A stretch of 64,000 nt of DNA from an uncultured Chromatiales bacterium. GTDB taxonomy: Bacteria; Bacteroidota; Ignavibacteria; SZUA-365. The stretch spans positions 13,715 through 77,714 of the forward strand of contig CAYUWG010000006.1 of the NCBI GenBank assembly GCA_964448285.1, given 5' to 3'. Made by a program: the position numbers and the translations under genes. Shown piece after piece: positions 4,175-32,042 of this stretch. The first letter of the stretch is position 1. Every line of letters starts with the position of its first letter. Below the pieces are notes generated by a model. The model searched no databases, had not been told where the DNA came from, and saw only the letters and a list, made by a program, of their open reading frames with translations.

Positions 4175-5448
4175 GGCTGCACCGCCTTTCCGGTGTGAAA
4201 GTCGATGTCCGCGCGAGTTTTCCAGTAGTCTGCGCGAAGTCGATGGTAATCCGTTTGCAGTTGATAGAGCTTGACCAGATTGTCGAGAACGGTGAGGTAA
4301 TCGACATCCCCGACCTGATAACCGGCCAGCGATGCGTTCAATGCCTGCGACGCCTGCGGGAGAAGACCCGTCGTCAACAGTTCCAGGCGCTCATGCACGG
4401 TCGCCAGCGTGGCGAGCGATGAAGAAAATGATGTCTGGAGTTGTTGCAAGGCGGTGTTGTACGACTCGGTGTACATGTTGATCATCGCCTCTGCTTCCTC
4501 CACCGCTGCCGATCGCTTTCCCCCGTTATTCAGAGGCAGATTCAGGTTGAGGGACAAGGAAAGGAAGTCCACAAGATTGTTATTATTCGCCGCGAGATAA
4601 TCCCTTTGCGAGTATGCGGCCCCGATCATGAAATCGGGGTACCATTCAAGATTGGCGAGTTCCTTCTGTGCCCGAGCCTTATCGGCCGCATTCTTTATGC
4701 CTTGTAGAAATGGCCGATGCTGAATCGCTTCATCGAGCAGGTCACGAACCGAGAACTGATCTTTTCCAACCTCAGTGAGTGAATCGATCCTCATCCCTGT
4801 ACCTGCTTCACGCAGGAGAAGACTGTTCATCTCATCCACCTTCCTGCGGTACTCTTCACGGAGCTTCAGAATGCGATCCGTGATGCGGCTGATCTCGAAA
4901 TCAGATTTGATGACGTCCTGCTGCGTTCCTCTCGCGACTTCATACTTCGCGCGCACCACTTTCGAGATGTTTCGAAGCACGTCACGGGATTCCTCGTCGA
5001 CGGCGATTGCTTTCTGAAGGAAGGCAAGTTCGTAATAGACCTTCCGCACATTTCGCACGATATCGTTTCGCGTATCGAAGAATTCCTGTTGGGCGATGCG
5101 TTCATCCTGTCCGGCGATGTCGCCTCGTGTGGAAAGCTTCCCGGGGAAAGGAAACATCTGTGATAGACCGAGCATCTTGCCGGTCATCGGTTCCTGTGTA
5201 AAGCTGAAGCTGTTGACCGGAAGATTGTTCATGCTGAATGCAACACGCGGATCGGGAAGGCTGGAAACCTGCGGAACACGTTGGTTGAACATTCTTACCC
5301 GGGCTTCGAGTGCTTTCAGGCGAGGACTGACGTACAAGGCTTCGCGGACGTATCCGGAGAGAACGGTGTCATGGATTTCCTGCCCTTGCACCGTCTGAAG
5401 AAACATCACCAGGAGTGTGGTAAGGAGTAAAGGGATTGTTCGATACAT
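4171..5448 (-). CDS. TolC-family outer membrane efflux protein (CusC-like outer membrane factor)
   Basis: Track ORF 4171..5565. The likely true start is the internal ATG at 5448 (MYRTIPLLLTTLLVMFLQTVQGQ signal peptide). Alpha-helical/coiled-coil-rich sequence typical of TolC-family proteins. Overlaps the cusB start by 4 bp. Confidence 0.8.
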   Translation of the reverse strand: MYRTIPLLLTTLLVMFLQTVQGQEIHDTVLSGYVREALYVSPRLKALEARVRMFNQRVPQVSSLPDPRVAFSMNNLPVNSFSFTQEPMTGKMLGLSQMFPFPGKLSTRGDIAGQDERIAQQEFFDTRNDIVRNVRKVYYELAFLQKAIAVDEESRDVLRNISKVVRAKYEVARGTQQDVIKSDFEISRITDRILKLREEYRRKVDEMNSLLLREAGTGMRIDSLTEVGKDQFSVRDLLDEAIQHRPFLQGIKNAADKARAQKELANLEWYPDFMIGAAYSQRDYLAANNNNLVDFLSLSLNLNLPLNNGGKRSAAVEEAEAMINMYTESYNTALQQLQTSFSSSLATLATVHERLELLTTGLLPQASQALNASLAGYQVGDVDYLTVLDNLVKLYQLQTDYHRLRADYWKTRADIDFHTGKAVQP

Positions 5449-5589
5449 GGATCTGACCTTGTAGTTCATGAAACAGCTGGAAGAACTGGTTGAGAGCTTG
5501 TCCTTGCCACATGTCAGCAGCATGACAGGGGATAAAACGAACCACCCGTGCGCAGAACGGCGCACGAATCTTCGTTCAAAGAGACAGGG

Positions 5590-6054
5590 TCAGATTAAAA
5601 AGGAGGAGTTGAATAGGTAGGTATTTTCTCCGCCACCAGGGGGGAAGTGGTCGCGATGAAGATGCTGATAGAGGGCCGAGCGTAGAGCCAAGAATGAATG
5701 TGAGACATCAGTAACAGAATTATCTACTGTGAACCTCAGAGGTTGGAACGTCGGCCTGAACTGATATTCGAATGCATTATGAATCTGTTTCGTGGCGTCT
5801 ATTTCATAGCAGCACTCCACACCGTCGAGCTTCTGTTTCGTTGGTTGTGAGGACCGCTCAGAGCAACACGAGAAGTCATGCGTTTCCCGTTCGTGCATCG
5901 TGCACGTGGAGAACAATTCCGCAACACCCATTTCCGCACAGATGTGCTGATACAATGGAATCCCGATCACACCGAATGAAAGGGAAACGAGCATGATGGC
6001 TGTTGTGATATTTCTCGTTGCGTTTCGCATCCGATGACAACTTAGTTTATTCAC
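5590..6054 (-). CDS. Hypothetical small membrane-anchored Cys/His-rich protein, possible metal-binding accessory protein
   Basis: 154-aa ORF (probable start at internal MRNATRNITTAIMLVSLSFGVIGIPLY with one TM helix). Contains CAEMG, STCTMHERETHDFSCC, GVECC and HLHRDH clusters. Placed between the multicopper oxidase genes and the TolC-like gene on the same strand. No family recognised. Confidence 0.4.
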   Translation of the reverse strand: MNKLSCHRMRNATRNITTAIMLVSLSFGVIGIPLYQHICAEMGVAELFSTCTMHERETHDFSCCSERSSQPTKQKLDGVECCYEIDATKQIHNAFEYQFRPTFQPLRFTVDNSVTDVSHSFLALRSALYQHLHRDHFPPGGGENTYLFNSSFLI

Positions 6055-6131
6055 ATCAGCGAATCAATGACATTTGTTACAAGATCTTTTGAAACAGTTG
6101 TAAAATCGTTGGGATCGCTACGAGTAAACTC

Positions 6132-7346
6132 CTACTCCACGACGATCATCTTCCTAAGCACATGCACTCCGTCTCGTATCTCGATGAATGAACTCCCGCG
6201 AAGTCCGTTCAACTCGAATGCGAGGTTGTGAGTCCCGGATTCGAGTGCAATACCACCCGCAAGTGTGCGCACCCTTCGCCCGAGCAGATCATACACAAAG
6301 ACCGAGAACACCGACGGCGTCCGTGTGACAAGTTTCAGCGAGAGCTTCGAAGACGACGCAAGCGGATTTGGATAGACAGTGAAGTCGAAAGTGCGTGGAG
6401 TTTCGATGTTCGATACGGATAAGGGGCCGGTTACCTGGACAGGCACGGTGAGTTTATGGCGACTCATCTCATTGTACATCGTGAGAAACTCGACGCTGAT
6501 GGAATGAAGTCCGCTCGTGTTCGCGGTAATGAGTACATCGTACCGCTCACCCGGCAGAACCTCCAATGAAGAGGAATGGATAGCCGAAGGCAGTGGTCTT
6601 CCATCGGAGGCGATAATGGTCGCACCAAGATTCGCGAAGTCATACCGATGCACCATATAGCCGGCGTTCAAAAGTCGAAGCAGGACAGTATCTCCTAAGG
6701 AAAATGCGACGTGAGAGTTCGGGTCACCGTTGATTCCGGATTGTTCCTTCCCGTTGATCATGAAATACTTCGGGCGATAGTATTTGAAATCCGCGTCCAT
6801 CGTCTGCCGCAGCCAGAGCGAATCGAATTCGGAGGCGATCCACATCCGTTCAACGTCGAAAGAAGGCCCTCCCTCCCATGCGGTCGTGGAACTATCCGGA
6901 GGGCGCACGATGATCGCACCCCACATGCCCATGTGTGCATGGAGAAAACTTTCGACGTGGCAGTGATACCAGTACGTTCCGGCATGTGGCGCGGTGAATT
7001 CATATGAACCCGTGCGACCCATTCGTACGGAAAAGGAAGTCTCCGGAAATCCGTCATTCGCCTGGTCAACGTCTAAGCCATGGAGATGCACGGTGTGATC
7101 TTCCATCGAGTTGTTCGTGAAATTGATTTTGTATTGCTGTCCTTGTATCAGTGTAAACATCGGTCCCGGTAGTTGAATCGTCGGCGGCATGCTCGGATAG
7201 CCGAATCCCCAGTAGGTATGGTTCGCGCCGTCGGAGGTCGTCATCCGACCGGTCATGGTTGCGATGAGATTGAGCTCCGTGACCTGGGATAAGGCGATCG
7301 GTGAATGAGCCAAACAGACGAGACCGATAAAGACCAACTTCTTCAT
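6132..7346 (-). CDS. Multicopper oxidase family protein (two cupredoxin domains) with T9SS C-terminal sorting domain
   Basis: Signal peptide. Copper-ligand motifs HTVHLHG (HxH) and YWYHCHVESFLHAHMGMW (HCH...H...M). The C-terminal ~80 aa (YPNPLASSSKLSLKL...VFVYDLLGRRVRTL...) match the T9SS CTD pattern. Confidence 0.8.
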   Translation of the reverse strand: MKKLVFIGLVCLAHSPIALSQVTELNLIATMTGRMTTSDGANHTYWGFGYPSMPPTIQLPGPMFTLIQGQQYKINFTNNSMEDHTVHLHGLDVDQANDGFPETSFSVRMGRTGSYEFTAPHAGTYWYHCHVESFLHAHMGMWGAIIVRPPDSSTTAWEGGPSFDVERMWIASEFDSLWLRQTMDADFKYYRPKYFMINGKEQSGINGDPNSHVAFSLGDTVLLRLLNAGYMVHRYDFANLGATIIASDGRPLPSAIHSSSLEVLPGERYDVLITANTSGLHSISVEFLTMYNEMSRHKLTVPVQVTGPLSVSNIETPRTFDFTVYPNPLASSSKLSLKLVTRTPSVFSVFVYDLLGRRVRTLAGGIALESGTHNLAFELNGLRGSSFIEIRDGVHVLRKMIVVE

Positions 7347-8206
7347 GGCAGAACCTCCATCAAATCGAGCATCCCGTTGTGATGCTGCCCGCCTCCGATT
7401 TCCCCTGCGAGATTATTGTGATCGTGCACGGGGAATTTACCCGGTTGGTCAGGAGTCAGCAGCAATTCCATGCTTTCTCCCCATCGAATCGGAATCGTGT
7501 CTTTCCACAAAGGAGGGTCGATCATGACGTGATTTCTTCGCGTCAGAGCTAAGTGATAGCCGTGAAAATGCAGGCTGTGCCACATCAATCCGGCATTGAG
7601 CACACGAATGCGAATGGTCTCCCCGACGCGACCCATGATGTGCGTCGAAGGATCGGATTGAATGTTCGGCTGACTTTTCCCATTTATAGTGAAGTAGTCC
7701 GGCCAATACTCATTCACGTCTGCGATACCCGTGGTCATCCATGTACTGTCATGCTCGCTCAGAATCCACAGGTACTCACGGTCGTAGCTCTTGCCATCAT
7801 CTACGATGATTGCACCGAAGAGTCCGGTACTCTGATTGCGAGGATAGTTAATCGGATCGTGATAGAGATAGACGCCCGGTTCCGAAAAAGACAAGTCTAT
7901 CGGTCTCGATTCGTTTGGAGGTATTATCGTCACGAGCGGCCTGCCTTCGGTTCGAATCGCAAACCCGTGCTCGACCGAATCAGTGTTGAAGACCTGAATC
8001 TGCAATGTGACGTCTTTGTCGCACTTCAGTACAGGGCCCGGAAGCGTCGCTTCGCCGTCCTTCGACGCGCTGAACGTCGTGATCGGTATGCGTCCGCCTA
8101 AGGAACTGACTATTGTTCCTGATCGGATGAAGAGTGTGTCAGGATTTCGGGAGAGTGCGCTCCAAAGTGGCGTGAGTAAAAGAACACAGAGAAAGGCGCT
8201 TTTCAT
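7343..8206 (-). CDS. Cupredoxin/multicopper-oxidase-like secreted protein
   Basis: 287 aa with a signal peptide. HxH motif WHSLHFHGYH and His-rich PVHDHNNLAGEIGGGQHHNGM. Overlaps the downstream MCO gene by 4 bp (operon). Lacks a full HCH motif, so it may be a partner or degenerate MCO. Confidence 0.65.
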   Translation of the reverse strand: MKSAFLCVLLLTPLWSALSRNPDTLFIRSGTIVSSLGGRIPITTFSASKDGEATLPGPVLKCDKDVTLQIQVFNTDSVEHGFAIRTEGRPLVTIIPPNESRPIDLSFSEPGVYLYHDPINYPRNQSTGLFGAIIVDDGKSYDREYLWILSEHDSTWMTTGIADVNEYWPDYFTINGKSQPNIQSDPSTHIMGRVGETIRIRVLNAGLMWHSLHFHGYHLALTRRNHVMIDPPLWKDTIPIRWGESMELLLTPDQPGKFPVHDHNNLAGEIGGGQHHNGMLDLMEVLP

Positions 8207-8430: not shown

Positions 8431-8766
8431 ATGAAAATACTTCTCACTCTCTTCGCAACGACGCTCTTTTTCACCGCGTGCAGTTCAGAAAAACAGGAGC
8501 AGAAATCCGGTCAGGAAAATCAAACGGAAACCAAACCTGCACAGACAACTGAATTGCAAAGCCTGGATGAATGGATCCGTCCGACACCGGTCAAGAGCGT
8601 TGCGGATTTCGATGAGAACCATGATGGACACGTGTATAACGACAACATGTGCTGGAACGTCATCGCGGACGTACCGGGGAAATGTCCCAAGTGCGGAATG
8701 AAGATGAAGGAAGTCACGGTCGCAGATGCCGAGGCCAAGCTCAAAGAGCACGGCATGATGGAATAG
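8431..8766 (+). CDS. Lipoprotein with C-terminal Cys-x-x-Cys heavy-metal-binding domain (copper chaperone-like)
   Basis: Lipobox LFFTAC. C-terminal NMCWNVIADVPGKCPKCGMKMKEV matches the HMBD motifs in cusB. Transcribed divergently from the copper operon. Confidence 0.7.
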   Translation: MKILLTLFATTLFFTACSSEKQEQKSGQENQTETKPAQTTELQSLDEWIRPTPVKSVADFDENHDGHVYNDNMCWNVIADVPGKCPKCGMKMKEVTVADAEAKLKEHGMME

Positions 8767-11499: not shown

Positions 11500-12038
11500 A
11501 GCCTGTGATCGGTGAATCATACTTACACCTTTGTTTTGTGAAGAAACACGTCGTGATCGGGGCTTGACAAACAGACGGATGAGTGTGATCCAACCACCTT
11601 CATAATTCCTTCCAACTGACGAGCGAAATATTACTCCGGTTTGTGTACTCGCAAATGCGGAAAGGGTGTTTATTGTCGATTCCTGATTCTTCCTGCGCGA
11701 ATTTTCGTTCGTCCGGGCACCGGAATTTCTCAACGTCAGCCGGTTCCGGTTTTTGCCCATCTCCCGAATGATTACGAATTTCGTAGCGGCTCTAACAGCC
11801 AAGCGAACATTCGATGATGACCAGCGAGCAATACTTGACAACGAACGACGGCATACAGCCGTCCCGTCTCGTGTGTCTTCCCTTCAATCGCTGTCGCACG
11901 CGCTCCCGCAAGATCTCTCAGTTCCAGCATTACGTTACCGACGCACCCGTCTAAGGAGTGCGCGATCTCAGCATGAACCTTCGTTCGTGTGAACGAAGGC
12001 GTCCCCTTTTTCTGAATTCTAACACTGGAGTTTTTATC

Positions 12039-12959
12039 GTGAGCAAACGCGATTTTCTTGAAGTCACTGATTTTTCCACCGAAGAGATCAACGAGGTCTT
12101 CCAGCTTGCGCTGGACATGAAAGCGGATCGGCGTAAGTACGCCGAGGCGCTCAAAGGCGAAGCCCTCGCGCTCATTTTCGAAAAACCGTCGCTTCGTACG
12201 CGCACGACATTCGACATCGGTATCCAGCAGCTTGGCGGTTACTCGCTCTACCTCTCGCCGAACGAAATCAGTCTCGGCAAGCGCGAATCGGTTTACGACG
12301 TGGCGAAGAATCTCGAACGCATGGTGCAAGGGATCATGCTTCGCACGTTCGGGCACGATATCGTTGTGGACATGGCGAAGTATGCGAGCATCCCGATCAT
12401 CAACGGCCTGACGGACTTCGCGCATCCCTGCCAGGCGATGGCGGACTTCCTCACGCTGCATGAAGTGAAAGGCAGCCTCGAAGGTTTGAAGCTTACCTAC
12501 GTGGGTGACGGCAACAACGTCGCGCATTCGCTCATGGCTGCCGGTGCAAGGCTCGGTGTACACGTCACCGTTGCGTGTCCGAAGGGGTTCGAGCCGCAGG
12601 AGAACACCGTCAACGCAGCACGCGATGCCGCGAAAGAAACCGGCGCTCGCATCGAGGTGGTGAACGATCCGGTCGAGGGAGTGAAAGACGCCGACGCGGT
12701 TTACACGGACGTCTGGGCTTCGATGGGTCAGGAAGCGGAAGCAGAAGAGCGCAAGAATATCTTTCGTCCATATCAGGTGAATGAAGAGCTGATGTCGAAC
12801 GCGAAGAGCGATGCAATCTTCATGCACTGCCTGCCCGCGCATCGCGGCGATGAAGTCACCGATGGGGTTATCGACGCTGCGTACTCCGTCGTCTTCCAGG
12901 AAGCGGAGAACCGCCTCCACGTGCAAAAGGCCATCCTCTACAAATTGATGAAGCAATAA
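12039..12959 (+). CDS. argF: Ornithine carbamoyltransferase
   Basis: Motifs SLRTRTTF (STRTR), HPCQ, DVWASMG and FMHCLPAHRGDEV (HCLP). Probable GTG start at 12039 (VSKRDFLEV...) preceded by GGAG; the track's upstream ATG at 11958 adds a non-homologous extension. Confidence 0.85.
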   Translation: MSKRDFLEVTDFSTEEINEVFQLALDMKADRRKYAEALKGEALALIFEKPSLRTRTTFDIGIQQLGGYSLYLSPNEISLGKRESVYDVAKNLERMVQGIMLRTFGHDIVVDMAKYASIPIINGLTDFAHPCQAMADFLTLHEVKGSLEGLKLTYVGDGNNVAHSLMAAGARLGVHVTVACPKGFEPQENTVNAARDAAKETGARIEVVNDPVEGVKDADAVYTDVWASMGQEAEAEERKNIFRPYQVNEELMSNAKSDAIFMHCLPAHRGDEVTDGVIDAAYSVVFQEAENRLHVQKAILYKLMKQ

Positions 12960-12962
12960 TCC

Positions 12963-13901
12963 ATGTCGAAAACCGCGCTCATAGCGATCGGAGGAAACTC
13001 ACTCATCCAGGCGGGCGAGCGCGGGACTATTGAAGAACAGCTTCTCAACGCGCACGCAACGGCGCGCGCTATCGTTCACATGGTGAAGGACGGCTGGCGA
13101 ATCGTAATCACGCATGGCAATGGACCGCAAGTCGGTGCCGCCCTGTTGAGAAGTGAACGAGCCGCCGGCGAGGTTTACACCCATCCGCTCGACGTTTGCG
13201 TTGCGACGACGCAGAGCGAGATCGGCTATCTCCTGCAACGTGCCATGGAGTATGAGCTCAGGCAGTTAGGTCTCACGACTCCCGTCATCACTGTCCTGAC
13301 GCAGGTGAGGGTCGATCCGCGCGACCCGGCATTCGAGAATCCGACGAAACCGGTCGGCCCGTTTTACACGAAGCGCGTTGCCGAAGAAAAGAAGCGGACG
13401 TTGGGCTGGCACATCATCGAGGACTCCTCGCGCGGCTGGCGACGGGTTGTGCCTTCACCGGAACCGGTGGAAGTCTTCGAGCTGGACATCATCCGCACGA
13501 TGATGGAGCAGGGGATGATCGTCATCGCGTGCGGCGGCGGCGGCATCCCGGTGATCGAACACGAGGACCATCGCGTCGAAGGAGCGGAAGCGGTTATCGA
13601 CAAAGATCGCGCGTCAGCGTTACTCGCCGCAGGACTTAACGTCGATCTCTTCATCATCTCGACCGCGACGCCTCAGGTCTATGTCGATTTTAAATCGCGG
13701 ACGCAGCGCGGTTTGGGCGACGTCTCCGCTGACGAATTGCAACGGTATCTCGATGAAGGGCAATTCCCGGAAGGCAGCATGGGTCCGAAGGTGGAATCGG
13801 CGCTGGATTTCATCCGAAAGGGCGGCCGGCATGTGATCATTACATCGTATGAGTTTCTCATGGATGCGTTGAAAGGAAAGGCGGGGACGCATGTGCGATA
13901 G
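12963..13901 (+). CDS. arcC: Carbamate kinase
   Basis: N-terminus MSKTALIAIGGNSL...VITHGNGPQVG and the glycine-rich IACGGGGIPV are canonical carbamate kinase features. 312 aa. Confidence 0.88.
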   Translation: MSKTALIAIGGNSLIQAGERGTIEEQLLNAHATARAIVHMVKDGWRIVITHGNGPQVGAALLRSERAAGEVYTHPLDVCVATTQSEIGYLLQRAMEYELRQLGLTTPVITVLTQVRVDPRDPAFENPTKPVGPFYTKRVAEEKKRTLGWHIIEDSSRGWRRVVPSPEPVEVFELDIIRTMMEQGMIVIACGGGGIPVIEHEDHRVEGAEAVIDKDRASALLAAGLNVDLFIISTATPQVYVDFKSRTQRGLGDVSADELQRYLDEGQFPEGSMGPKVESALDFIRKGGRHVIITSYEFLMDALKGKAGTHVR

Positions 13902-14069
13902 AAAGGCCAGTGCGCGGCGCAGCAGTTCCGATAGTCCTGTTGGGCGCAATGAATCAAACCGAAGAATGAAAACTCATGTGCGGGAAACCATCGCGACTCA
14001 AACGAATCTCAATCGACAACCATCGACTATTCACAATTCACAAAACGCTCAACGCTATCCGGTGGTAAC

Positions 14070-14987
14070 ATGAAACTTCAACACATCGTCGAGTCGCAGC
14101 AATTCACGGTTCCGTTTCTCATGGAGTTGTTCGAACGCATCGAACGCATGAAGCGCATCGATCAGCGGGGAGGAACACGGGACTACAACAACCGGATCAT
14201 GACGACGCTCTTCTCGCGGCCTTCGACGCGCACGCGATTTTCGTTCGAAGCCGCGATGTACCGTCTCGGCGGAAGCGTTCTTTCGACGGAATCGGCGCAA
14301 GCGTTTTCCTCTGAGATCGAAGGAAGCCAGTTGGAGGATACGATTCGCATCATCGGAGCGTATTGCGACGTGATCGTCCTTCGTCACCACGAAGAAGGGG
14401 GAGCGAAACGCGCCGCCGCCGTGTCGAGCGTGCCGATCATCAATGCAGGCGACGGCGCAGGCGGGCAGCATCCGACGCTGGCGCTCACGGATCTCTATAC
14501 GATTTACAACGAGTGCAAAACGCTCGACGGTTTGAGCGTTGCACTCATCGGCGCACTGGATACCGGCAGGACGGCTCGCTCGCTCGCGTATCTTCTCAGC
14601 AAGTTCGAGCGCACGAAACTCTACTTCATCGCGCCGGAGGAAATGCAGATCAAACCGGATATCCTCGCCTATCTCGATCAGCACGACGTTGCCTATGAGT
14701 GCACGACGAACACGCGCGGCATCATCAATCACGTGGACGTCGTGTATCAGACGAGGATCGACCGCGAACGGCTGCGTAATCGCGAGATGGATTTGAGCGC
14801 ATACAACATCGACAGTGCCGTTCTCCACGAGATGAAGAAGAACGCGATCGTCATGCACCCGCTCCCGCGTTCCGTCGAGATCGATGCATCGGTCGATTCC
14901 GATCCAAGGGCGGCGTACTTCAGGCAAGCACGAAACGGATTGTTCGTCCGCATGGCGTTGCTCACGATGCTTTTCGACAATGAATAA
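14070..14987 (+). CDS. Aspartate/ornithine carbamoyltransferase superfamily protein, PyrB-like (aspartate carbamoyltransferase catalytic-chain-like)
   Basis: STRTRFSFE, QHPTLALTDL (the ATCase motif is HPTQALLD) and HPLPR motifs. 305 aa. No pyrI-like gene follows. Confidence 0.75.
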   Translation: MKLQHIVESQQFTVPFLMELFERIERMKRIDQRGGTRDYNNRIMTTLFSRPSTRTRFSFEAAMYRLGGSVLSTESAQAFSSEIEGSQLEDTIRIIGAYCDVIVLRHHEEGGAKRAAAVSSVPIINAGDGAGGQHPTLALTDLYTIYNECKTLDGLSVALIGALDTGRTARSLAYLLSKFERTKLYFIAPEEMQIKPDILAYLDQHDVAYECTTNTRGIINHVDVVYQTRIDRERLRNREMDLSAYNIDSAVLHEMKKNAIVMHPLPRSVEIDASVDSDPRAAYFRQARNGLFVRMALLTMLFDNE

Positions 14988-15011
14988 CAGACAATTCAAA
15001 CCAAGGACTTT

Positions 15012-16214
15012 ATGAAAACACAAGACTATATCGCGCTCGAAGAGCAGTACGGCGCACATAACTATCATCCGCTTGACGTCGTCATCGCGAGCGCGTCTGG
15101 TGCATGGGTGACGGACGTCGATGGGAACAAGTATCTCGACTGTCTCGCCGCTTACTCGGCGGTGAATCAGGGGCACTGCCATCCGAAGATCCTGGAAGCA
15201 TTTATCGCGCAAGCGAAACGCGTCACGCTGACGAGCCGCGCATTCCGCAACGATCAGTTGCCCCTTCTCTACAAAAAACTGCACGACCTCACCGGTTACG
15301 AATTCTCACTCCCCATGAACTCCGGCGCTGAAGCCGTGGAAACCGCGATCAAGTGCGCTCGCAAGTGGGGCTACAAGGTGAAGGGCATCGCGCATGACAA
15401 GGCTGAGATAGTCTGTGCGACCGATAACTTCCACGGACGCACGACAACCATCGTCAGCTTTTCAACCGAGCCGCAATACCGCGACGGTTTCGGGCCGATG
15501 ACGCCGGGCTTTCCAATAGCGAAGTACGGCGACATCGACGACATGAAATCGAAGATCAACGAGAACACCGCCGCTATTCTCATCGAGCCGATTCAGGGCG
15601 AGAGCGGCATCGTCGTTCCACCGGAAGGCTACCTGAAGCAGATCGCACAGCTTTGCAAGGATCAGAATATTCTCTTCATCTGCGATGAAGTGCAGTCCGG
15701 TTTGGGACGCAGCGGTAAGCTCTTCGCGTTCGAGTACGAAGGCGTTCGCCCGGACATGGTCATCATCGGGAAGGCGTTGTCGGGTGGCTTTTATCCGGTC
15801 TCTGCAGTGCTTTCGAGCAAGGCAATTCTCGGCGTGTTCAAACCCGGAGATCACGGTTCGACGTTCGGCGGTAACCCGCTCGCGGCCGCGGTCGCATGTG
15901 CATCGCTCGACGTCATCGTGGAAGAAAAACTGATCGAGCGTTCCTTCGAACTTGGGAATTACTTCATGGAGAAACTGCGCACGATCCGGGACCCGCACGT
16001 CGTCGAAGTTCGCGGGCGAGGATTGTGGATCGGTTTCGTTCTCGATACGAAAGCGCGTCCCTATTGCGAAGCGCTCATGAAGGAAGGAATCCTCTGCAAG
16101 GAAACGCACGACAACATCATCCGCTTCGCACCGCCGTTGGTGATCACGAAGGAAGAAATCGACTGGGCATTCGAACGCATCGCGCGCGTCGTTACGAACA
16201 TGAGTTTACAATAG
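15012..16214 (+). CDS. rocD: Ornithine aminotransferase (class-III PLP aminotransferase)
   Basis: DEVQSGLGRSGKLFAFEYEGVRPDMVIIGKALSGGFYPVSAV closely matches the OAT signature around the PLP lysine. 400 aa. Confidence 0.8.
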   Translation: MKTQDYIALEEQYGAHNYHPLDVVIASASGAWVTDVDGNKYLDCLAAYSAVNQGHCHPKILEAFIAQAKRVTLTSRAFRNDQLPLLYKKLHDLTGYEFSLPMNSGAEAVETAIKCARKWGYKVKGIAHDKAEIVCATDNFHGRTTTIVSFSTEPQYRDGFGPMTPGFPIAKYGDIDDMKSKINENTAAILIEPIQGESGIVVPPEGYLKQIAQLCKDQNILFICDEVQSGLGRSGKLFAFEYEGVRPDMVIIGKALSGGFYPVSAVLSSKAILGVFKPGDHGSTFGGNPLAAAVACASLDVIVEEKLIERSFELGNYFMEKLRTIRDPHVVEVRGRGLWIGFVLDTKARPYCEALMKEGILCKETHDNIIRFAPPLVITKEEIDWAFERIARVVTNMSLQ

Positions 16215-16233
16215 AATCATATCAGGAGTCTTT

Positions 16234-17559
16234 ATGGCAGAACAGAATCGCATCAACACCATCATCGTCGGAGCCGCAGGACGCGACTTCCACAATTTCA
16301 ACATGCTCTATCGCGACAACGAGCGTTACAACGTCGTCGCGTTCACGGCGAACCAGATCCCGAACATCGACGGAAGGAAATACCCCGCGTCGCTTGCGGG
16401 AAAGCTCTATCCCAAAGGCATTCCCATCCATAAGGAAGCGGAACTCGATGCGCTCATCGCAAAGCACGACGTTGAGGAGGTCGTCTTTTCGTACAGCGAC
16501 GTGGACTACGAGCACGTGATGCGCATCGGTGCCCGCGTGAATGCCGCTGGGGCGCATTTCAAAATGCTCGGCTCGACAAGGACCATGTTGAAAAGTTCGA
16601 AGCCGGTGATCGCCGTGTGTGCCGTTCGTACCGGTTGCGGGAAGAGCCAGACCACGAGGCGCGTCGCGAAACTTCTGCAGGAGATGGGAAAGAAAGTCGT
16701 TGCCGTGCGTCACCCGATGCCATACGGCGATCTCGCGAAGCAGGCGGTGCAGCGATTCGCTTCCGTTACAGATATGAAGAAGCACAAGTGCACCATCGAA
16801 GAAATGGAGGAATACGAACCGCACGTCGTGAGCGGAACCGTGATCTATGCCGGCGTGGATTACGAACGCATTCTTCGCGAAGCGGAGAAGGAAGCGGACG
16901 TGATCCTGTGGGACGGAGGCAACAACGACCTGCCGTTCTTCAAGCCGGACGTGCACATCGTCGTCACCGATCCTCACCGCGCAGGCGACGAACTGTACTA
17001 CTATCCCGGCGAAGCGAACCTGCGCATGGCCGACGTGGTTGTGATCAACAAGATCGACACGGCCGGACCTGAAGAGATTCACATTCTGCGGGACAACATC
17101 CGCTTCGCGAATCCGAAGGCCGTCGTCATCGATGCGGCCTCACCGATTCTCGTGAAGAACGCGGAGAAGATCGCCGGGAAGCGCGCACTGGTCGTTGAAG
17201 ACGGTCCGACGCTGACGCATGGCGAAATGAAATTCGGAGCGGGTGTGATCGCCGCACAAAAATTCGGCGCGAGCGAACTCGTCGATCCCCGCGCGTACGC
17301 AGTCGGCACGATCAAAGACACGTTCGCGAAGTATCCCGATATCGGCACGCTCCTCCCTGCGATGGGTTATGGCGACAAGCAGATCAAGGATCTCGAAAGC
17401 ACGATCAACAAAACGCCGTGCGACGTTGTCGTAATCGGAACGCCGATCGATCTTTCCCGCATCATTGAAATGAAAAAACCTGCCGTGCGCGTGACGTACG
17501 AACTTCAAGAGATCGGTGAGCCAAGCTTGAGGACGGTGTTAGGGAAGATGCAGAAATAG
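16234..17559 (+). CDS. P-loop NTPase of the COG2403 / cyclic-2,3-diphosphoglycerate-synthetase-like family (tentative)
   Basis: 441 aa. N-terminal Rossmann-like segment, then Walker A AVRTGCGKSQTT and Walker B-like ADVILWDGG. Its last ~20 codons are duplicated at 31979-32042. Confidence 0.55.
   Translation: MAEQNRINTIIVGAAGRDFHNFNMLYRDNERYNVVAFTANQIPNIDGRKYPASLAGKLYPKGIPIHKEAELDALIAKHDVEEVVFSYSDVDYEHVMRIGARVNAAGAHFKMLGSTRTMLKSSKPVIAVCAVRTGCGKSQTTRRVAKLLQEMGKKVVAVRHPMPYGDLAKQAVQRFASVTDMKKHKCTIEEMEEYEPHVVSGTVIYAGVDYERILREAEKEADVILWDGGNNDLPFFKPDVHIVVTDPHRAGDELYYYPGEANLRMADVVVINKIDTAGPEEIHILRDNIRFANPKAVVIDAASPILVKNAEKIAGKRALVVEDGPTLTHGEMKFGAGVIAAQKFGASELVDPRAYAVGTIKDTFAKYPDIGTLLPAMGYGDKQIKDLESTINKTPCDVVVIGTPIDLSRIIEMKKPAVRVTYELQEIGEPSLRTVLGKMQK
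17485..17548. repeat. Left copy of ~64-bp imperfect direct repeat (3' end of COG2403 gene); attL-like
   Basis: GTGCGCGTGACGTACGAACTTCA[A]GAGATCGGTGAGCCAAGCTTGAGGACGGTGTT[A]GGGAAGA recurs at 31979-32042 with 3-4 mismatches. Confidence 0.8.
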
Positions 17560-17738: not shown

Positions 17739-20327
17739 ATGAGCTTTTCTAACATCATCAAGCCACGGCCGGAAGTTCTTAAAAAAGATGGAATTGATAG
17801 CGTCATCGATATCGAGAATTTGCGTTCGAAGAGGTTAAAAGCAGTCGAAAGTAGGCCCAAGGACTTTTTCGATCTCACATATCCTACGAGCGACATCAGG
17901 TTTGTCGTAGAACATCTTCATCGAAGGTTCATGGGCAAAGAGGCTGGTGCAGGAACGTACTTGCTTGAAGGGTACAAAGGGAGTGGAAAATCTCATCTTG
18001 AATTGTTCGTGTACCATTTGCTCAATAGCCCAAATGATGCGCAGGAATGGCTGCTTCGAAACGATCTTGAGTGTGCGCTTCCAAAACAGCCGGTTACGGT
18101 TATTCGGAAATTCACCGATTTCCATATCGACACACTGTGGAACTGGATTTTTGACGAGTTGGGAGATCGGAAAAATATGGATCGCCCACCTGACTTGGAC
18201 CAATTTCGAAGAACACTGGCGGGTAGGCAGTTAATCCTGATTCTCGATGAATTGGAGATGGGTATCAAGAGCATTCCGAATGAGGCGAGCCGGGCACAAA
18301 ACCTCGCATTCATTCAAATGCTTAGCGAGGAGGCACAGAGATCGGAATCAGCCACGGTGACGGTGTTCGCATCCGTGTACGATTCAAACCAGGAAGCCGG
18401 GGCAACTCTTAAACGTGTCTCTCCGGTCAACATACGTTTCATGGAGCCGCAGGACAGAAGGAGAATCATTCAGCATAGATTGTTCGCTCAATTCGAAAAG
18501 CGTGAGACGAACCGGATAGATCAAGTCATCCAATCATATGTCAACGAATGGAAAAGGCATGATATCCAGGTTGATGAACGACACATCGAAAGCATGAGGG
18601 AGTCCTTTCCCTTCAGTCCTGAACTTCTTGATACAGTTTTGTACCGTGTTCCCGCAAAAGGTGGGTTTCAGGCGAACAGAGGAGCGCTCGGTCTTCTTGG
18701 AACGGTGGTTCGGCTAACACATAACAAAACCGATCTAATCACTACTGCGCATCTTGCTATCAGCGAACCTACGGTAAGAAATAAACTCGCCGACCTTGAT
18801 CCTGCCCAGAACTTCCTCGATTGCGCTGGCAGTGATTTCAATGATCTCAAAGAACTCAGTGTGGCTGAAGAAATCATTTCCAGTGTCCTTGTCGCATCAC
18901 TCGCGCCCGCTGGCCAGACCATCGGAATAACGGAGATGGAATTGAAGCGGCAAATCATCGAACCAGGGGATGACATCAATGTCTTCTCGAGTACGCTTCA
19001 TGCACTTGAAAAACTTGGGACCTACTTTCAACACCAAGAGGACAGATACTTTTTCGACACGCATGAGAAACCGAACGCCAAAGTGGAATATCGATCCCTA
19101 CGTATCGAAAGAGGCCGAGCGATCGACTATGCTTTGACAAAATGGAAGGTTGACCTTTTCAAAGATCCGGAAGCAGTAGTCTATCGTGATAGAGTTCAGG
19201 TTAACGAGGATCTTTCAATGAGGGACGCTAAGAGGATTAGGTTCGTCCTATCACCCTTTCGATTGAATGAAGATGAGAGAAGGAATGTCTTTCACGGTCA
19301 GCAGAACCAGAACATTATCCTACTCCTCGAACCGCGAACAACGACGTTCAATGCATTGGAGCACCCTGATATTATCAAATGGGGACAAAGGGCGCTTGCC
19401 GCCCAAGAGCTTATTCCCACAGCAGAATCAGACAGACGAAAGCACTATGAGAAGATTTTGGCGGAAGACACGAGATGGATCATCGATACGATCAAGCGGA
19501 CAGGGCTGCATCTGGTCTGGATACAGGACTATGGTGTCATGGAAGAGGAGAATCTTGGAAACGCGTCGACACGTGACGATGTCCTGAAACAATTGCGCGA
19601 CACAATATTTCCTCGTCAGCGCTTCGAGGAACATATCAAGGACCATATCAAGGATTTCTTCGGACAAACGGTTCGCTCCGTCGATGCAATATACAGGAAG
19701 ACGCTTGGCTACCCGATCAGAACAGCTGATTCAACTATCCCTGATGCTATTCGGGAATTATGCAAGTCTGGTGTCCTCGGTCTTATTCATGAACGAGCGA
19801 AAGCATGCGGAACGACCTTCGACCTATCATCGATGGAACTACTCGATGCGACGATTTCAGAGCCATTTGAGGAAGATCAGCCCGCAAAGATGCCCTTCAC
19901 TGAAGGTCTGGGATTCAAGGATCATACGGATACTAAATCGACTACGATCATCGATAAGTCACCCATTTACGATTCTCCTGTGTATTCGTACGAAACGCTC
20001 CAGTTACCGTTCACAACATCAATTCACTCACTACGACAGGGAATCGCAAGTCGTCTGGAGAATCACCCACAGTCGCAGATACACAAGGCAACGTTTTACA
20101 TTCTCATGAAGCATTCGGAGGTTGAACTTTCTTCTTTATCTGCTGCGGTTCGCGGCTCTCTGTCAGGAAAAGGTAGTATTGTCGCTGACATCACTATCAG
20201 TAGGGTTGGCGTCTTTTCCAAAGCTGCGATCGAACAGATGGTTGAGCAACTCCCGTCCTTCGAAGGCGCTCAGTACGGAATGGAATGCAAGATTGAAACT
20301 GTCAGGGAGACCGTATCAAGTGAATGA
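17739..20327 (+). CDS. P-loop ATPase, DUF499/BrxC(PglY)-like defence ATPase (tentative family assignment)
   Basis: 862 aa. Walker A LLEGYKGSGKSH near residue 80 and Walker B LILILDELE near residue 170, followed by a long non-enzymatic C-terminal region as in BREX BrxC-type ATPases. First gene after the AT-rich junction. Confidence 0.65.
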   Translation: MSFSNIIKPRPEVLKKDGIDSVIDIENLRSKRLKAVESRPKDFFDLTYPTSDIRFVVEHLHRRFMGKEAGAGTYLLEGYKGSGKSHLELFVYHLLNSPNDAQEWLLRNDLECALPKQPVTVIRKFTDFHIDTLWNWIFDELGDRKNMDRPPDLDQFRRTLAGRQLILILDELEMGIKSIPNEASRAQNLAFIQMLSEEAQRSESATVTVFASVYDSNQEAGATLKRVSPVNIRFMEPQDRRRIIQHRLFAQFEKRETNRIDQVIQSYVNEWKRHDIQVDERHIESMRESFPFSPELLDTVLYRVPAKGGFQANRGALGLLGTVVRLTHNKTDLITTAHLAISEPTVRNKLADLDPAQNFLDCAGSDFNDLKELSVAEEIISSVLVASLAPAGQTIGITEMELKRQIIEPGDDINVFSSTLHALEKLGTYFQHQEDRYFFDTHEKPNAKVEYRSLRIERGRAIDYALTKWKVDLFKDPEAVVYRDRVQVNEDLSMRDAKRIRFVLSPFRLNEDERRNVFHGQQNQNIILLLEPRTTTFNALEHPDIIKWGQRALAAQELIPTAESDRRKHYEKILAEDTRWIIDTIKRTGLHLVWIQDYGVMEEENLGNASTRDDVLKQLRDTIFPRQRFEEHIKDHIKDFFGQTVRSVDAIYRKTLGYPIRTADSTIPDAIRELCKSGVLGLIHERAKACGTTFDLSSMELLDATISEPFEEDQPAKMPFTEGLGFKDHTDTKSTTIIDKSPIYDSPVYSYETLQLPFTTSIHSLRQGIASRLENHPQSQIHKATFYILMKHSEVELSSLSAAVRGSLSGKGSIVADITISRVGVFSKAAIEQMVEQLPSFEGAQYGMECKIETVRETVSSE

Positions 20328-21316: not shown

Positions 21317-21583
21317 ATGAAAACACTCCAGCATCAGTCGAAGAAAGTAAAGATCGGAACGGTTCTCGATGAGGACATCCTCCGAAGATTGAAAGAACGA
21401 GCCGCACGTGAAGGGCGCACTATCGCCGCGCTCATCGAGGAAGCCGTCCTCAAGTACGAACAGGAGGAAGCGTTTGCGCGTGAGATGCGGCTCCGCGCTC
21501 TTGAATCAGTCTTTGCCGTCAAATTCAATATCTCGCGGGAGGACTTCGAGGCGATCATGGAAGAGGATTACTACGACCAATGA
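21317..21583 (+). CDS. Ribbon-helix-helix (CopG/VapB-like) antitoxin
   Basis: 88 aa. ILRRLKERAAREGRTIAALIEEAV is a typical RHH fold sequence. Overlaps the downstream PIN gene by 4 bp. Confidence 0.7.
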   Translation: MKTLQHQSKKVKIGTVLDEDILRRLKERAAREGRTIAALIEEAVLKYEQEEAFAREMRLRALESVFAVKFNISREDFEAIMEEDYYDQ

Positions 21584-22089
21584 ACCTGGACGACGTGAGA
21601 AATAGGGACGTGATCATTCTCGACGCGAATATCTTCGTGTATGGAGCGCTGGAGATGTCCGAGCAATGTATGCGTTTGCTCCGGCGATGCGCGGCGCGGG
21701 ATGTAACCGGTGTCGTTGGGTTGCAACAGATGGCGGAGGTCATGCACCGCCTCATGATGATCGAAGCGCGTGAAAACAAATGGACGCCGGGAGCGAATCC
21801 GGCCAAGACCCTTGCCAACCACCCGGATCGCGTGCGCTCGCTCAACAGGTACGAGCAGGCAGTCAAGGGATTCTTTGCAAGTGGCTTTCGATTTGAAACG
21901 CTCATGAAGGAGGATTTCGGGATCGCGCTCTCGTTGCAGCGGCAATTCGGGCTGATGACGAACGATGCACTTCTGGCTGCCATGGCGGAAAGACTCCGCA
22001 TCCAATCCATTGCGAGCGCGGATACGTCATTCGCGAACGTGCGAGGGATGATGCTGTATCAACCGGATGACGTTGTATCAACCGGATGA
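21580..22089 (+). CDS. PIN-domain ribonuclease toxin (VapC-like)
   Basis: 169 aa. N-terminal VIILDANIFVY (first acidic residue) and later MTNDALLAA motif typical of PIN domains. Confidence 0.75.
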   Translation: MNLDDVRNRDVIILDANIFVYGALEMSEQCMRLLRRCAARDVTGVVGLQQMAEVMHRLMMIEARENKWTPGANPAKTLANHPDRVRSLNRYEQAVKGFFASGFRFETLMKEDFGIALSLQRQFGLMTNDALLAAMAERLRIQSIASADTSFANVRGMMLYQPDDVVSTG

Positions 22090-23482: not shown

Positions 23483-24424
23483 ATGAACATTCCAAAAAAG
23501 CGAACACGATTTCGTGCATATCAACTAAAGACTGAGGGGTCCTCATTTTCGTACTTTGATGGAGACGCATTTACACTTATCGAAGCGCGCTGCAATGAAC
23601 ATAATTGTTCGAATATATGTGATGAATTGGGGGAATGCGACAAGAGTAGAATTGATTCTCTTCATATTACGAGTTGGGATGAAGACCATTGTGCTTTTAA
23701 GGAGTTAGAGGAAATACTCGACACCTTCACGCCAAAAAGGATTGAATATCCTGGCTACGAACCGAAAACTGAAAATGGTAAGCATTGTTTAAGTGCAATT
23801 TATTCATACAATAAGAAAGAATGGAGATGGATAGTAAAAGTAAATCCAGAATATATTCGCGGTTTGAAGAAGGCGGAAGCGCTTGGCTATCAAGACATTT
23901 TGTACAATCCATTGGTTATCATGGAGACGTCGAACGACAATTCGACTATTAAATTCTTTCGAAAGGGATCATTTAACGTAATAAGCCTCGGTGATGTTGA
24001 GAGCCCGATGATTCGCTCGAGACTTGAAAGGCTCAGTATTTTCAATTCTGAGATAGACGTCATGATATTATCCCATCACGGCGCAGATAATGGCTTTACA
24101 ACCAAATCATTTTTAAGCAAAACAAAACCAACTGTGGCTATAGCTTCAGCTAATTACGAAAATGAATATGAACATCCAAGAAAGAGTATTCGAAACGATC
24201 TGTACGAATTGAACATACCAATCTTTACGTCTAAAACGGGAGATGTGATAATCGAATCCACAGGAGATCACACAGGCTCATATAGAGTCACAAACTTAAA
24301 GAGTGATTCGACGGATATATCGTCGCAAAGGGATTTTAAATCAAAGAAGGCATCCAAATTGACTCATAATGCGGATTCGATTCGAAATCATTATAATCCC
24401 AAGAGACCGTTTTATAGGTTCTGA
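23483..24424 (+). CDS. MBL-fold metallo-hydrolase, ComEC-C-terminal-like (possible nuclease)
   Basis: 313 aa. DVMILSHHGADNGFTTKSFLSKTKPTVAIASANYENEYEHPRKSIRNDLYELNIPIFTSKTGDVIIE parallels the ComEC/MBL pattern V.HHGS......FL..V.P..A.IS.G..N.YGHP. AT-rich. Confidence 0.5.
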   Translation: MNIPKKRTRFRAYQLKTEGSSFSYFDGDAFTLIEARCNEHNCSNICDELGECDKSRIDSLHITSWDEDHCAFKELEEILDTFTPKRIEYPGYEPKTENGKHCLSAIYSYNKKEWRWIVKVNPEYIRGLKKAEALGYQDILYNPLVIMETSNDNSTIKFFRKGSFNVISLGDVESPMIRSRLERLSIFNSEIDVMILSHHGADNGFTTKSFLSKTKPTVAIASANYENEYEHPRKSIRNDLYELNIPIFTSKTGDVIIESTGDHTGSYRVTNLKSDSTDISSQRDFKSKKASKLTHNADSIRNHYNPKRPFYRF

Positions 24425-24435
24425 CTACTTACCCC

Positions 24436-24642
24436 ATGATCCGCGCCATCGAAGAGTATTTCCCCATCGTGGACATCAACCGCCTTGCGGTGCCGGAGCG
24501 AAATGCGTTCAAACCGATCTATCAGATGCACAAGGGGTTTGCGCGGCGTTCGGTTATGGTTTTTCGTACGATCCTGTTGGGCGCGATGAAACCTGTCAAC
24601 CCAGATATTATGGAGGAGTTCTACGGGACGGAGAGACGATGA
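24436..24642 (+). pseudogene. Decayed in-frame duplicate of the first ~65 codons of the DUF1156 methyltransferase gene
   Basis: MIRAIEEYFPIVDINRLAVPERNAFKPIYQMHKGFARR... versus MTRAIEEYFPIVDINRLAVPERNAFKPIYQMHKWFARR... at 25609. Roughly 85% nucleotide identity over ~190 bp (my manual alignment). Terminates at an ATGA overlap with the next gene. Confidence 0.7.
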
Positions 24643-24983
24643 AACGAAGCACATCCCAAAGAAAATCGCAACTCGAGCGCCTACCTCAATCGGTTCGTGA
24701 TATCTTCTGGGAATACGAAAAAGGGTCCATCTCATGGCAGAAGGACCGCGACCTCATCATCAAGAAAATCTTACATCACGGGTCGTGGGACGCCCTGTGT
24801 TGGATGAGGTCGGTCATCGATGACGAATCGCTTCGAACGTGGTTGATCGATCATGATGGTGCGGGTCTCGATGCGAAGCGATTGCGCTACTGGCAACTCA
24901 TCCTCAACCTGCCGGTGTCCAACGTGAACAAGTGGATTCAAACATACCGGGATAATCCCTGGAGCCGGAGGATGACGGGATGA
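24639..24983 (+). CDS. Small protein encoded upstream of and overlapping the AbiEii-type toxin gene; putative cognate antitoxin/regulator
   Basis: 114 aa (MKRSTSQRKSQLERLPQSVRDIFWEYEKGS...). Its start overlaps the stop of the methylase fragment and its stop overlaps the AbiEii start (ATGA). Family not recognised; shorter than classical AbiEi. Confidence 0.45.
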   Translation: MKRSTSQRKSQLERLPQSVRDIFWEYEKGSISWQKDRDLIIKKILHHGSWDALCWMRSVIDDESLRTWLIDHDGAGLDAKRLRYWQLILNLPVSNVNKWIQTYRDNPWSRRMTG

Positions 24984-25612
24984 AGATCCACGAGGAGGTA
25001 TTGTCGCCGCGGCAAAAGAACCTTGCCCGTCGCATCGGGCCGGCACTTTCCCGACAGGGTTTTTATCTCGCAGGTGGGACGGCATTGGCTCTCATGGTGG
25101 GACATCGGCATTCTGTTGACTTCGACTACTTCATCGACGATCCGATGAACGATCCTCAATCCGTCATCGAGACCTTGCGCAAGGTCGGTTGTAATCCTAT
25201 CGTGGAGATTCTGGAGAAAGGCACTGTTCACGTGACGTGGTCGAGCGTCAGGATGTCTTTCATTACGTACCGCTATCCGATGCTCCAGCCTTTCGTTGAA
25301 TGGAAAGAAGGTGGATGTCGGCTTGCTTCGCTGGACGATATCGCATGCATGAAGCTTTCCGCTCTTGCGCAACGTGGTTCGAAGAAAGACTTCATCGATG
25401 CATTCGCGCTGATCCGGAAACACAAACCGCTTTCGGATCTCCTGCAACTCTATCAAAAAAAATTCGATGTCTCTGAGATTGTTCATGTGCTCTATGGATT
25501 GAGCTATTTCGACGACGCAGACAAAGAGCGTTCACCCAGGATGCTGTGGGATGTCTCATGGAAAGAGATAAAGAAAAAGCTCACAGAACACGTAAGGAAC
25601 CTCTCCCCATGA
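24980..25612 (+). CDS. Nucleotidyltransferase of the AbiEii/AbiGii toxin family
   Basis: 210 aa. FYLAGGTALALMVGHRHSVDFDYF is the family's characteristic GG.AL..HR.S.D.D motif region. Stop overlaps the methylase start (ATGA). Confidence 0.7.
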   Translation: MKIHEEVLSPRQKNLARRIGPALSRQGFYLAGGTALALMVGHRHSVDFDYFIDDPMNDPQSVIETLRKVGCNPIVEILEKGTVHVTWSSVRMSFITYRYPMLQPFVEWKEGGCRLASLDDIACMKLSALAQRGSKKDFIDAFALIRKHKPLSDLLQLYQKKFDVSEIVHVLYGLSYFDDADKERSPRMLWDVSWKEIKKKLTEHVRNLSP

Positions 25613-31978: not shown

Positions 31979-32042
31979 GTGCGCGTGACGTACGAACTTC
32001 AGGAGATCGGTGAGCCAAGCTTGAGGACGGTGTTGGAGAAGA
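31979..32042. repeat. Right copy of the ~64-bp imperfect direct repeat; displaced original 3' end of the COG2403 gene (attR-like)
   Basis: In the gene's frame it would encode ...VRVTYELQEIGEPSLRTVLEKKFGSE*, an alternative C-terminus to the ...TVLGKMQK* read at 17559. Confidence 0.8.

Follow-up and report, generated by a model that had tools for sequence, protein, structure and literature searches.

The window considered here is a stretch of 64,000 nucleotides (64 kb) from an uncultured Chromatiales bacterium, which GTDB places among the Ignavibacteria of the Bacteroidota (assembly GCA_964448285.1, contig CAYUWG010000006.1, positions 13,715 to 77,714), and the subject of this text is a probable arginine synthetase operon at window positions 12039-17559. 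There, five intact, tightly spaced open reading frames (ORFs) follow one another on the + strand, with spacers of 3, 168, 24 and 19 nt. They encode an ornithine transcarbamylase (OTC), a carbamate kinase (CK), a protein resembling aspartate transcarbamylase (ATCase), an ornithine delta-aminotransferase (OAT) and a P-loop protein which, judging from its homology, predicted fold and context, belongs to the family of the arginine synthetase ArcE. The ATCase-like gene, here called XTC, is what is new at this locus. An earlier note, made from the letters and ORF translations of the window, had reported five co-directional, tightly spaced genes and had named all five rightly; curated hidden Markov models agree with it for four of them. 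The features of the operon are:

12039-12959, + strand: OTC (arcB/argF type), 306 aa; NF001986, TIGR00658 and motifs
12963-13901, + strand: CK (arcC), 312 aa; TIGR00746, nearest structure 1E19
13902-14069, + strand: CK/XTC spacer, 168 nt, without recognisable element by Rfam, fold and terminator checks
14070-14987, + strand: XTC, ATCase-branch transcarbamylase-like protein, 305 aa; carbamoyl phosphate site kept, aspartate-site signature lost
15012-16214, + strand: OAT (rocD type), 400 aa; TIGR01885, nearest structure 3RUY
16234-17559, + strand: ArcE-family arginine synthetase homologue (COG2403 P-loop protein), 441 aa; assigned from homology, predicted fold and context

The identities of OTC, CK and OAT are straightforward. 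OTC scores 415 bits with TIGR00658 (cut-off 281) and 437.8 bits, above cut-off, with NF001986, and stays below cut-off in the models for the putrescine (PTCase), N-acetylornithine (AOTCase) and YgeW carbamoyltransferases. Its motifs HPCQ, DVWASMG (the DxxxSMG loop) and HCLP are all present, and its nearest solved structure is the OTC of Pyrococcus furiosus (1A1S). Possible upstream starts lie at 11958 and 11973; the 306-aa form is the one used by most relatives. The carbamoyl phosphate (CP) motif reads SLRTR instead of the usual STRTR, as it does in all 67 OTCs of the related operons described below. The Thr-to-Leu change has been tabulated for N-succinylornithine transcarbamylase (PMC4581275, Table 1), and the operon OTC keeps the OTC-type DxxxSMG loop despite it. 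CK scores 371.1 bits with TIGR00746 (cut-off 358.25), its best PDB matches being the P. furiosus carbamate kinase 1E19 (300 bits) and 1B7B. OAT reaches 542 bits with TIGR01885 (cut-off 378), the ArgD-type models remaining below their own cut-offs, and the nearest solved structure is likewise an OAT (3RUY, 524 bits). The 168-nt spacer has no Rfam match and no terminator-like site, and its RNA fold is not better than that of shuffled sequences (z = +1.5); a search for riboswitches, attenuators and terminators across the operon found none.

The P-loop protein is less easily recognised. No Pfam or NCBIfam model matches its 441 residues even at E = 10, and its thousands of relatives go in databases under the names 'predicted GTPase' or 'cyclic 2,3-diphosphoglycerate synthase' (cDPGS). 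Exactly these misnomers are carried by the family of TK2200, or ArcE, of Thermococcus kodakarensis, a previously hypothetical protein that catalyses Arg + ADP + Pi <-> Cit + NH3 + ATP and whose homologues were annotated 'putative GTPase' and which is itself only weakly similar to cDPGS (Michimori 2024, PMC11032458). Its authors describe a P-loop fold with likeness to LpxK, report that ArcE substitutes for ArcA in genomes with ArcC and at times adjoins arcB/arcC, and name Hyperthermus, Pyrodictium and Koribacter among the genera that hold it (PMC11032458). An exhaustive HMMER search collected 3,746 relatives of the window protein. Over its whole length it matches a homologue from Hyperthermus butylicus (47% identity over 439 of 441 aa), and it is 45% identical to one of the collected relatives, a Thermoproteota 'GTPase', whose own relatives include proteins of Hyperthermus butylicus, Pyrodictium occultum and Ignisphaera. 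Loci from Korobacteraceae are present in the operon set. Within the family, T133, G134, G136 and K137 of the Walker A motif hardly vary, and the AlphaFold2 (AF2) model of the window protein (pLDDT 94.5) finds as its top Foldseek matches the cDPGS of M. fervidus (8ORU, E 9e-18) and the LpxK of A. aeolicus (4EHX, E 6e-9), in agreement with what was reported for TK2200. The exact window protein has no record in the contig index. One homologue (P0357, 806 aa) contains an intein, which carries a LAGLIDADG endonuclease domain.

The fold match to cDPGS was considered as an identity and rejected: a solved cDPGS finds the window protein in phmmer with 31.6 bits over residues 215-325 only, and the model compares with 8ORU, 8ORK and 9SXB at 15-16% identity and a TM score of about 0.45. 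It is very improbable that the operon serves a classical arginine deiminase (ADI) pathway or a citrulline fermentation with its arcA elsewhere in the genome and an unrelated GTPase or cDPGS at its end. The database names would suit that explanation, and the inspection covered 64 kb of the genome; against it stand the marginal similarity to solved cDPGS, the occurrence of just these misnomers in the family described as ArcE and the position of the P-loop gene in one operon with OTC and CK across phyla. The gene is even fused to CK in P0258, a protein of 766 aa in which CK occupies residues 1-308 (44% identity to the window CK, which is matched over its full length) and the ArcE domain residues 328-755 (48% identity to the window ArcE). 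P0258 could be a genuine Rosetta-stone protein, or else a read-through artefact of gene calling.

GTDB species genomes were scanned with the XTC protein, which gave 80 loci at 65-78% identity. They belong to metagenome-assembled genomes (MAGs) of the Bacteroidota group (Ignavibacteria, Kapabacteria) and to Acidobacteriota, Gemmatimonadota and Myxococcota, and in the close homologues the same five genes stand between unrelated flanks. OTC lies upstream of XTC in 64 and CK in 65 of 67 informative loci, and downstream OAT is found in 50 and ArcE in 52 of 65. Gene order is exactly that of the window in 29 of 58 loci that are informative both upstream and downstream; the variants among them include eight loci without OAT, six without ArcE, seven (Acidobacteriota) with ArcE first and two with XTC alone. 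OTC-CK-XTC is therefore a near-invariant core (about 65/67 loci). Chance falls far short of explaining an arrangement whose order is repeated, between unrelated neighbours, in dozens of genomes. More distant ArcE homologues stand alone or adjoin CK only. No description of the operon in Ignavibacteria or Kapabacteria was found in the literature. Eight of the records bear proteobacterial labels, namely Hyphomicrobiales (L035, L037, L044, L047, L054), Ectothiorhodospiraceae (L030, L050) and Chromatiales (L059), with 72-75% identity to the window XTC; as their loci resemble those of Ignavibacteria and Kapabacteria, the labels would seem to result from mis-binning or mislabelling.

Across the phyla, mean identity to the window proteins is 71% for OTC, 66% for CK, 72% for XTC, 72% for OAT and 68.5% for ArcE. 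Compared with a 99%-identical strain, the numbers of codons with synonymous and non-synonymous differences are 4/4 in OTC, 7/3 in CK, 5/2 in XTC, 7/0 in OAT and 10/2 in ArcE; synonymous changes thus predominate except in OTC, the counts being small. All five proteins are under comparable constraint. When 502 neighbouring ORFs from the 80 loci were clustered, no partner occurred in more than nine loci, and the only recurrent neighbours were a Cys/Met-type pyridoxal phosphate-dependent enzyme, NfnAB-like genes and hydrogenase-like genes. One locus (L006) carries a gene for an isochorismatase-family hydrolase between OAT and ArcE (12146-12802); this family includes enzymes that act on ureido or carbamoyl compounds.

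The operon most probably encodes a bacterial version of the ArcE pathway, complemented by two branch enzymes. In the catabolic direction ArcE would convert arginine, ADP and inorganic phosphate (Pi) to citrulline, NH3 and ATP, OTC would phosphorolyse citrulline to ornithine and CP, and CK would form ATP and carbamate from CP and ADP, the total being two ATP per arginine. OAT would then pass ornithine via glutamate semialdehyde/pyrroline-5-carboxylate (P5C) to proline or glutamate, and XTC would act on the CP that OTC releases. This set of five activities corresponds to the scheme of T. kodakarensis, where ArcE, ArcB, ArcC, OrnAT leading to proline and CP leading to pyrimidines have been linked genetically (Michimori et al., 2026, PMC13260591), and ArcE shares an operon with OTC and CK in 52 of the 65 informative loci besides the fusion mentioned above. 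As ArcE would convert arginine to citrulline, no arginine deiminase would be needed. The other large ORFs of the window include no arcA, as the earlier note had said, and no carAB, pyrB/pyrI, argG/H or ArcD-type antiporter gene, and arcA was not found within 10 kb of the operon in the related loci examined. The missing deiminase is explained by the replacement of ADI by the ArcE family (PMC11032458).

Seen in this light, the citrulline/ornithine fermentation module put forward in the earlier note is too narrow, since with an ArcE-family protein the pathway would start from arginine; the same note had the P-loop protein right and called its role unknown, where it now appears to be the key enzyme of the pathway. 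Its other suggestion, a supply of CP to the pyrimidine branch 'as in some archaea', comes near to the Thermococcus model (PMC13260591), with the pyrimidine part of it doubtful for reasons given below.

Several points weigh against the pathway as outlined. The catabolic direction is what we infer, and all three core reactions are reversible; ArcE works near equilibrium, with K about 10 at 80 degrees C (PMC11032458), and the operon contains no transporter, regulator or P5C enzyme that would fix the direction. Loci without ArcE have neither arcA nor argG/H in its place, and direction can therefore not be read from substitutions. Of the 65 loci, 13 lack ArcE and 15 lack OAT, with OTC-CK-XTC almost invariant, which makes the CP triad, and not the arginine step, the conserved core. 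XTC lacks E50, K84, D162 and Q231 (E. coli ATCase numbering, used for this protein throughout), and the pyrimidine branch is therefore doubtful. Finally, the homologue search and cluster look-ups reached the crenarchaeal homologues and not the Thermococcus protein; orthology to TK2200 accordingly goes through crenarchaeal intermediates instead of a direct comparison, and the bacterial protein is a putative arginine synthetase.

The same genes could be read in the opposite, anabolic direction. CK would make CP from carbamate and ATP, OAT ornithine from glutamate semialdehyde, OTC citrulline, and ArcE arginine from citrulline, NH3 and ATP, with XTC using the same CP for pyrimidines, which would amount to an acetyl-free, ArgG/H-free arginine route costing two ATP together with a CK-based CP supply. 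The scheme employs every gene of the operon and is fitted equally well by the invariant core, seen as one CP maker with two CP users, and a few of the loci have a gene for glutamine synthetase or glutamate dehydrogenase in their flanks. A bacterial precedent for the OAT step reportedly exists in S. aureus, where OAT is said to work towards arginine. ArcE itself is reversible and supports arginine formation in vivo, and a biosynthetic role has been raised for organisms without ArgG/H (PMC11032458); moreover, among solved structures CK and OTC stand closest to the P. furiosus enzymes (1E19, 1A1S), and the P. furiosus CK was once proposed to be a CP synthetase (PMC13260591). In T. kodakarensis, however, CK could not replace ArcE/ArcB as a source of CP (PMC13260591), rocD-type OAT and CK are usually catabolic, and XTC is without the aspartate-site signature. 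On balance the anabolic direction is unlikely.

XTC lies above the cut-off of TIGR00670 (281.4 bits vs 236.95) and below that of NF002032 (254.6 vs 263). It shares 52% of its residues with Arabidopsis PYRB (6YPO), against 44% with the PyrB of P. abyssi and 38% with that of E. coli. Counts given below refer to 195 non-identical family members unless stated otherwise. The window protein has the CP motif STRTR, and the CP site is kept in the family (S52, T53, R54, T55, R105, H134, P266, L267). R167, R229, R234, L267 and the HPLP motif are invariant or nearly so in the 80 loci and 120 proteins, and P266, L267 and P268 are kept in 120/120 close homologues. ATCases are marked by the motifs FxExSTR and RxQxER, the latter found in all known ATCases (PMC4581275), and in XTC both are broken. 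The changes in the window protein are E50R, K84E, D162A, K164D, Q231D and D271V, and the family as a whole departs from the canonical residues as follows:

Position 50, canonical E: K in 93, R in 71, Q in 13, A in 6 and E in 4 of 195
Position 84, canonical K (the 80s-loop lysine for the neighbouring active site): E in 129, K in 27, Q in 15, A in 7 and D in 7 of 195
Position 162, canonical D: A or E across the family
Position 164, canonical K: D in 80/80 loci and 118/120 homologues
Position 231, canonical Q: D in 146, R in 16, N in 15, E in 6 and Q in 5 of 195
Position 271, canonical D: V family-wide

The canonical set E50/K84/Q231 occurs in 0/195 members, and the Asp (240s) loop is 3-5 residues shorter. 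In E. coli ATCase, single substitutions at K84, D162, Q231, E50 and Q137 each impair the enzyme strongly.

These losses, together with the fixed place of XTC beside CK in 65 of 67 loci, would suit a transcarbamylase for an acceptor other than aspartate, or an enzyme that phosphorolyses another ureido compound to feed CK. XTC would then form a further class of 'pseudo-ATCases' beside ureidoglycine transcarbamylase (UGTCase), which corresponds, for this gene only, to the third alternative of the earlier note, a pathway for a different carbamoylated substrate. There is a precedent in pseudo-ATCases adjoining CK that proved to be UGTCase (PMC4016543). On the other side, positions 50, 84 and 231 vary without a new fixed set, which is unlike a new specificity pocket, the carboxylate binders R167, R229 and R234 are invariant, and the clustering of neighbours gave no co-conserved gene indicating another substrate. 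Such an enzyme is less likely than not. Membership in UGTCase or another known pseudo-ATCase group was rejected: XTC has HPLP, not H(T/S)LP, and stands in an OTC-CK-OAT-ArcE context without allantoin genes.

A different view emerges from what has been kept. The CP loop is of the plant type, with T73, E74, F79, S80 and S81 invariant and F79 present in 195/195 members, and the corresponding Arabidopsis residue F161 is needed for the binding of uridine monophosphate (UMP) at the active site (PMC7878868). The residues that contact UMP in the plant enzyme are exactly those still invariant in the XTC family, that is, the CP/phosphate site with R167 and R229. Charges at positions 50 and 231 are complementary: 50 is positive and 231 negative in 144 members, 231 is positive in 17 whose residue at 50 is neutral or negative, and in no member do the two signs agree. 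Position 231 flips from D/N/E in Bacteroidota to R/Q in Acidobacteriota with the operon context unchanged. The pattern hints at a salt bridge rather than a substrate contact, and it is confounded by the presence of two clades.

The same observations could describe a non-catalytic or weakly catalytic subunit that binds CP or a nucleotide and scaffolds, channels or regulates OTC-CK, for instance as a sensor of CP or UMP. At the position of the catalytic lysine, K84, members have E, Q, A, D or K, the suggested salt bridge would be structural, the CP site of the window lineage puts up with Q137L, E86S and L140T, and the strict OTC-CK-XTC order suggests a complex. CP is channelled between CK, OTC and ATCase in Pyrococcus. 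This view, however, draws on conservation patterns, including a covariation confounded by phylogeny, and a mean identity of 72% with an intact CP site would fit an enzyme equally well; in addition, two loci carry XTC away from OTC and CK. A subunit of this kind is accordingly rather unlikely, more so than an enzyme with another acceptor. The two solitary genes have no pyrimidine genes adjacent to them.

To judge from its 72% mean identity and mostly synonymous differences, XTC is not decaying. Taken together, it may be something other than an aspartate transcarbamylase, and we tentatively propose that it represents a new class within the ATCase branch, one that spans phyla, either carbamoylating another acceptor or acting as a CP-/UMP-sensing or channelling subunit; otherwise, what remains is an ATCase with a rewired active site. 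If the proposal is true, the operon would hold an undescribed reaction or control step of CP metabolism. The earlier note was right in calling the protein atypical, and the HPTLAL motif it pointed to is real, but this is not what distinguishes the family, as the departures at E50, K84, D162, K164, Q231 and D271 are. HPTLAL (Q137L) occurs in 3/120 close homologues, all of the window lineage, the other 117 having HPTQA, and as a family signature it was rejected. Further changes private to this lineage are Y49S, E86S and L140T.

The cluster is largely explained by the discovery of ArcE in 2024, which the annotation resources have yet to absorb. The gap in annotation is systematic: at the dates of the libraries neither Pfam nor NCBIfam had a model for the family, thousands of bacterial genomes list its members as 'GTPase' or 'cyclic 2,3-DPG synthase', and the loci are misread as oddities lacking ADI. 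Once recognised, the two-ATP arginine route would appear widespread in Bacteroidota, Acidobacteriota and Gemmatimonadota of soil and sediment, beyond the hyperthermophilic archaea. The compact operon offers a test system for the activity and direction of bacterial ArcE, including a possible cheap, acetyl-free and ArgG/H-free synthesis of arginine. For enzymology, the ATCase look-alike is a target as it fails both signature motifs and yet is conserved like its neighbours, whether it proves to be a regulatory pseudoenzyme, a transcarbamylase of a new kind or an ATCase whose active site has been rewired.

Immediately downstream, the 3' end of arcE is occupied by an island, for which the following features were recorded:

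17485-17548, + strand: left copy of a 64-bp direct repeat (att-like) inside the arcE 3' end, identical to the uninterrupted sequence of a 99%-identical strain (contig L088)
17549-32042, + strand: inserted island of 14,494 bp, absent from L088; includes the right repeat and is not part of the pathway
31979-32042: right copy of the 64-bp direct repeat, 61/64 positions identical to the left copy
17739-20327: HmaC/DUF499-like ATPase, island cargo
21317-22089: Arc-like + PIN pair, island cargo
24369-25612: DUF6922 + AbiEii pair, island cargo
25546-28647: HmaB/DUF1156 methylase, island cargo
29116-31971: HmaA/BrxH-like SNF2 helicase, island cargo

The L088 contig matches window positions 11740-17548 and then joins directly to 31979-33389. 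The suggestion that the P-loop gene served as the integration target is borne out by this insertion and by the repeat, which equals the 3' end of arcE. The last ArcE residues are rewritten by the island, reading ...LGKMQK* in the window and ...LGKKFGSE* in L088. The cargo consists of defence and toxin-antitoxin genes, and no integrase was recognised in the island by Pfam, PHROGs or PADLOC. A second direct repeat, 193 nt long, 80% identical and 1,173 nt apart (24432-24624 and 25605-25797), brackets the AbiEii gene.

The other large ORFs of the window belong to copper resistance, haem synthesis, secreted proteins with type IX secretion system (T9SS) tails, SHMT, PPK2 and the defence island. Upstream of the operon lies a copper/metal resistance cluster (2675-8206, - strand, and 8431-8766, + strand) with a CusB/HlyD-like protein carrying heavy-metal-binding domains (HMBD), an outer-membrane efflux protein, two multicopper-oxidase genes and a small HMBD protein. 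Haem biosynthesis genes at 49705-51090, 54664-55842 and 61932-62930 code for a HemN-like radical SAM protein, uroporphyrinogen decarboxylase and HemD, and are interspersed with genes for the T9SS-tailed proteins, which fits a host of the Bacteroidota group.

Among known systems, the pathway of T. kodakarensis is the closest. Both have an ArcE-family P-loop protein with OTC and CK, no arcA is found (here in the scan of the window), the predicted fold has cDPGS and LpxK as relatives, and the two outlets of the archaeal pathway, OAT to proline and CP to pyrimidines, have counterparts here in OAT and the CP branch. The archaeal genes are scattered (TK2200, TK0871, TK2158, TK2101), whereas here they form one bacterial operon, in a mesophile-type Bacteroidota-group MAG, with a CP-branch protein that is not a canonical PyrB and an ArcE activity that is putative. 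The arcABC pathway resembles the operon in having OTC and CK after an arginine-to-citrulline step and ATP formed from carbamoyl phosphate. It differs in that the window has neither ArcA nor an ArcD antiporter and that the ArcE first step would be carried out by an unrelated P-loop enzyme, energy-conserving and reversible, with a yield of two ATP instead of one. As for the cDPGS of M. fervidus (8ORU, 8ORK, 9SXB), it is the best structural match to ArcE and the source of the NCBI name, but at 15-16% identity, and the context and the characterised relative of the window protein indicate arginine/citrulline chemistry.

The closest solved relative of XTC is the UMP-inhibited PYRB of Arabidopsis (6YPO, 52% identity; PMC7878868). 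Like XTC it is a stand-alone catalytic chain of about 305 aa, and it shares the unusual CP loop T-E-x-A-x-x-F-S-S with its UMP-binding Phe, the CP site, R167, R229 and HPLP; it keeps, however, E50, K84 (K166), D162, Q231 and D271, all five of which the operon protein has lost, and a longer Asp loop. The pseudo-ATCases including UGTCase (Barba et al., 2013, PMC4016543) are also members of the ATCase branch that are annotated as ATCase and depart from RxQ, and one subgroup of them adjoins CK. They change HPLP and occur in purine or hydantoin catabolic contexts, whereas HPLP is intact in XTC, whose gene lies in an arginine operon with CK on one side and OAT on the other.

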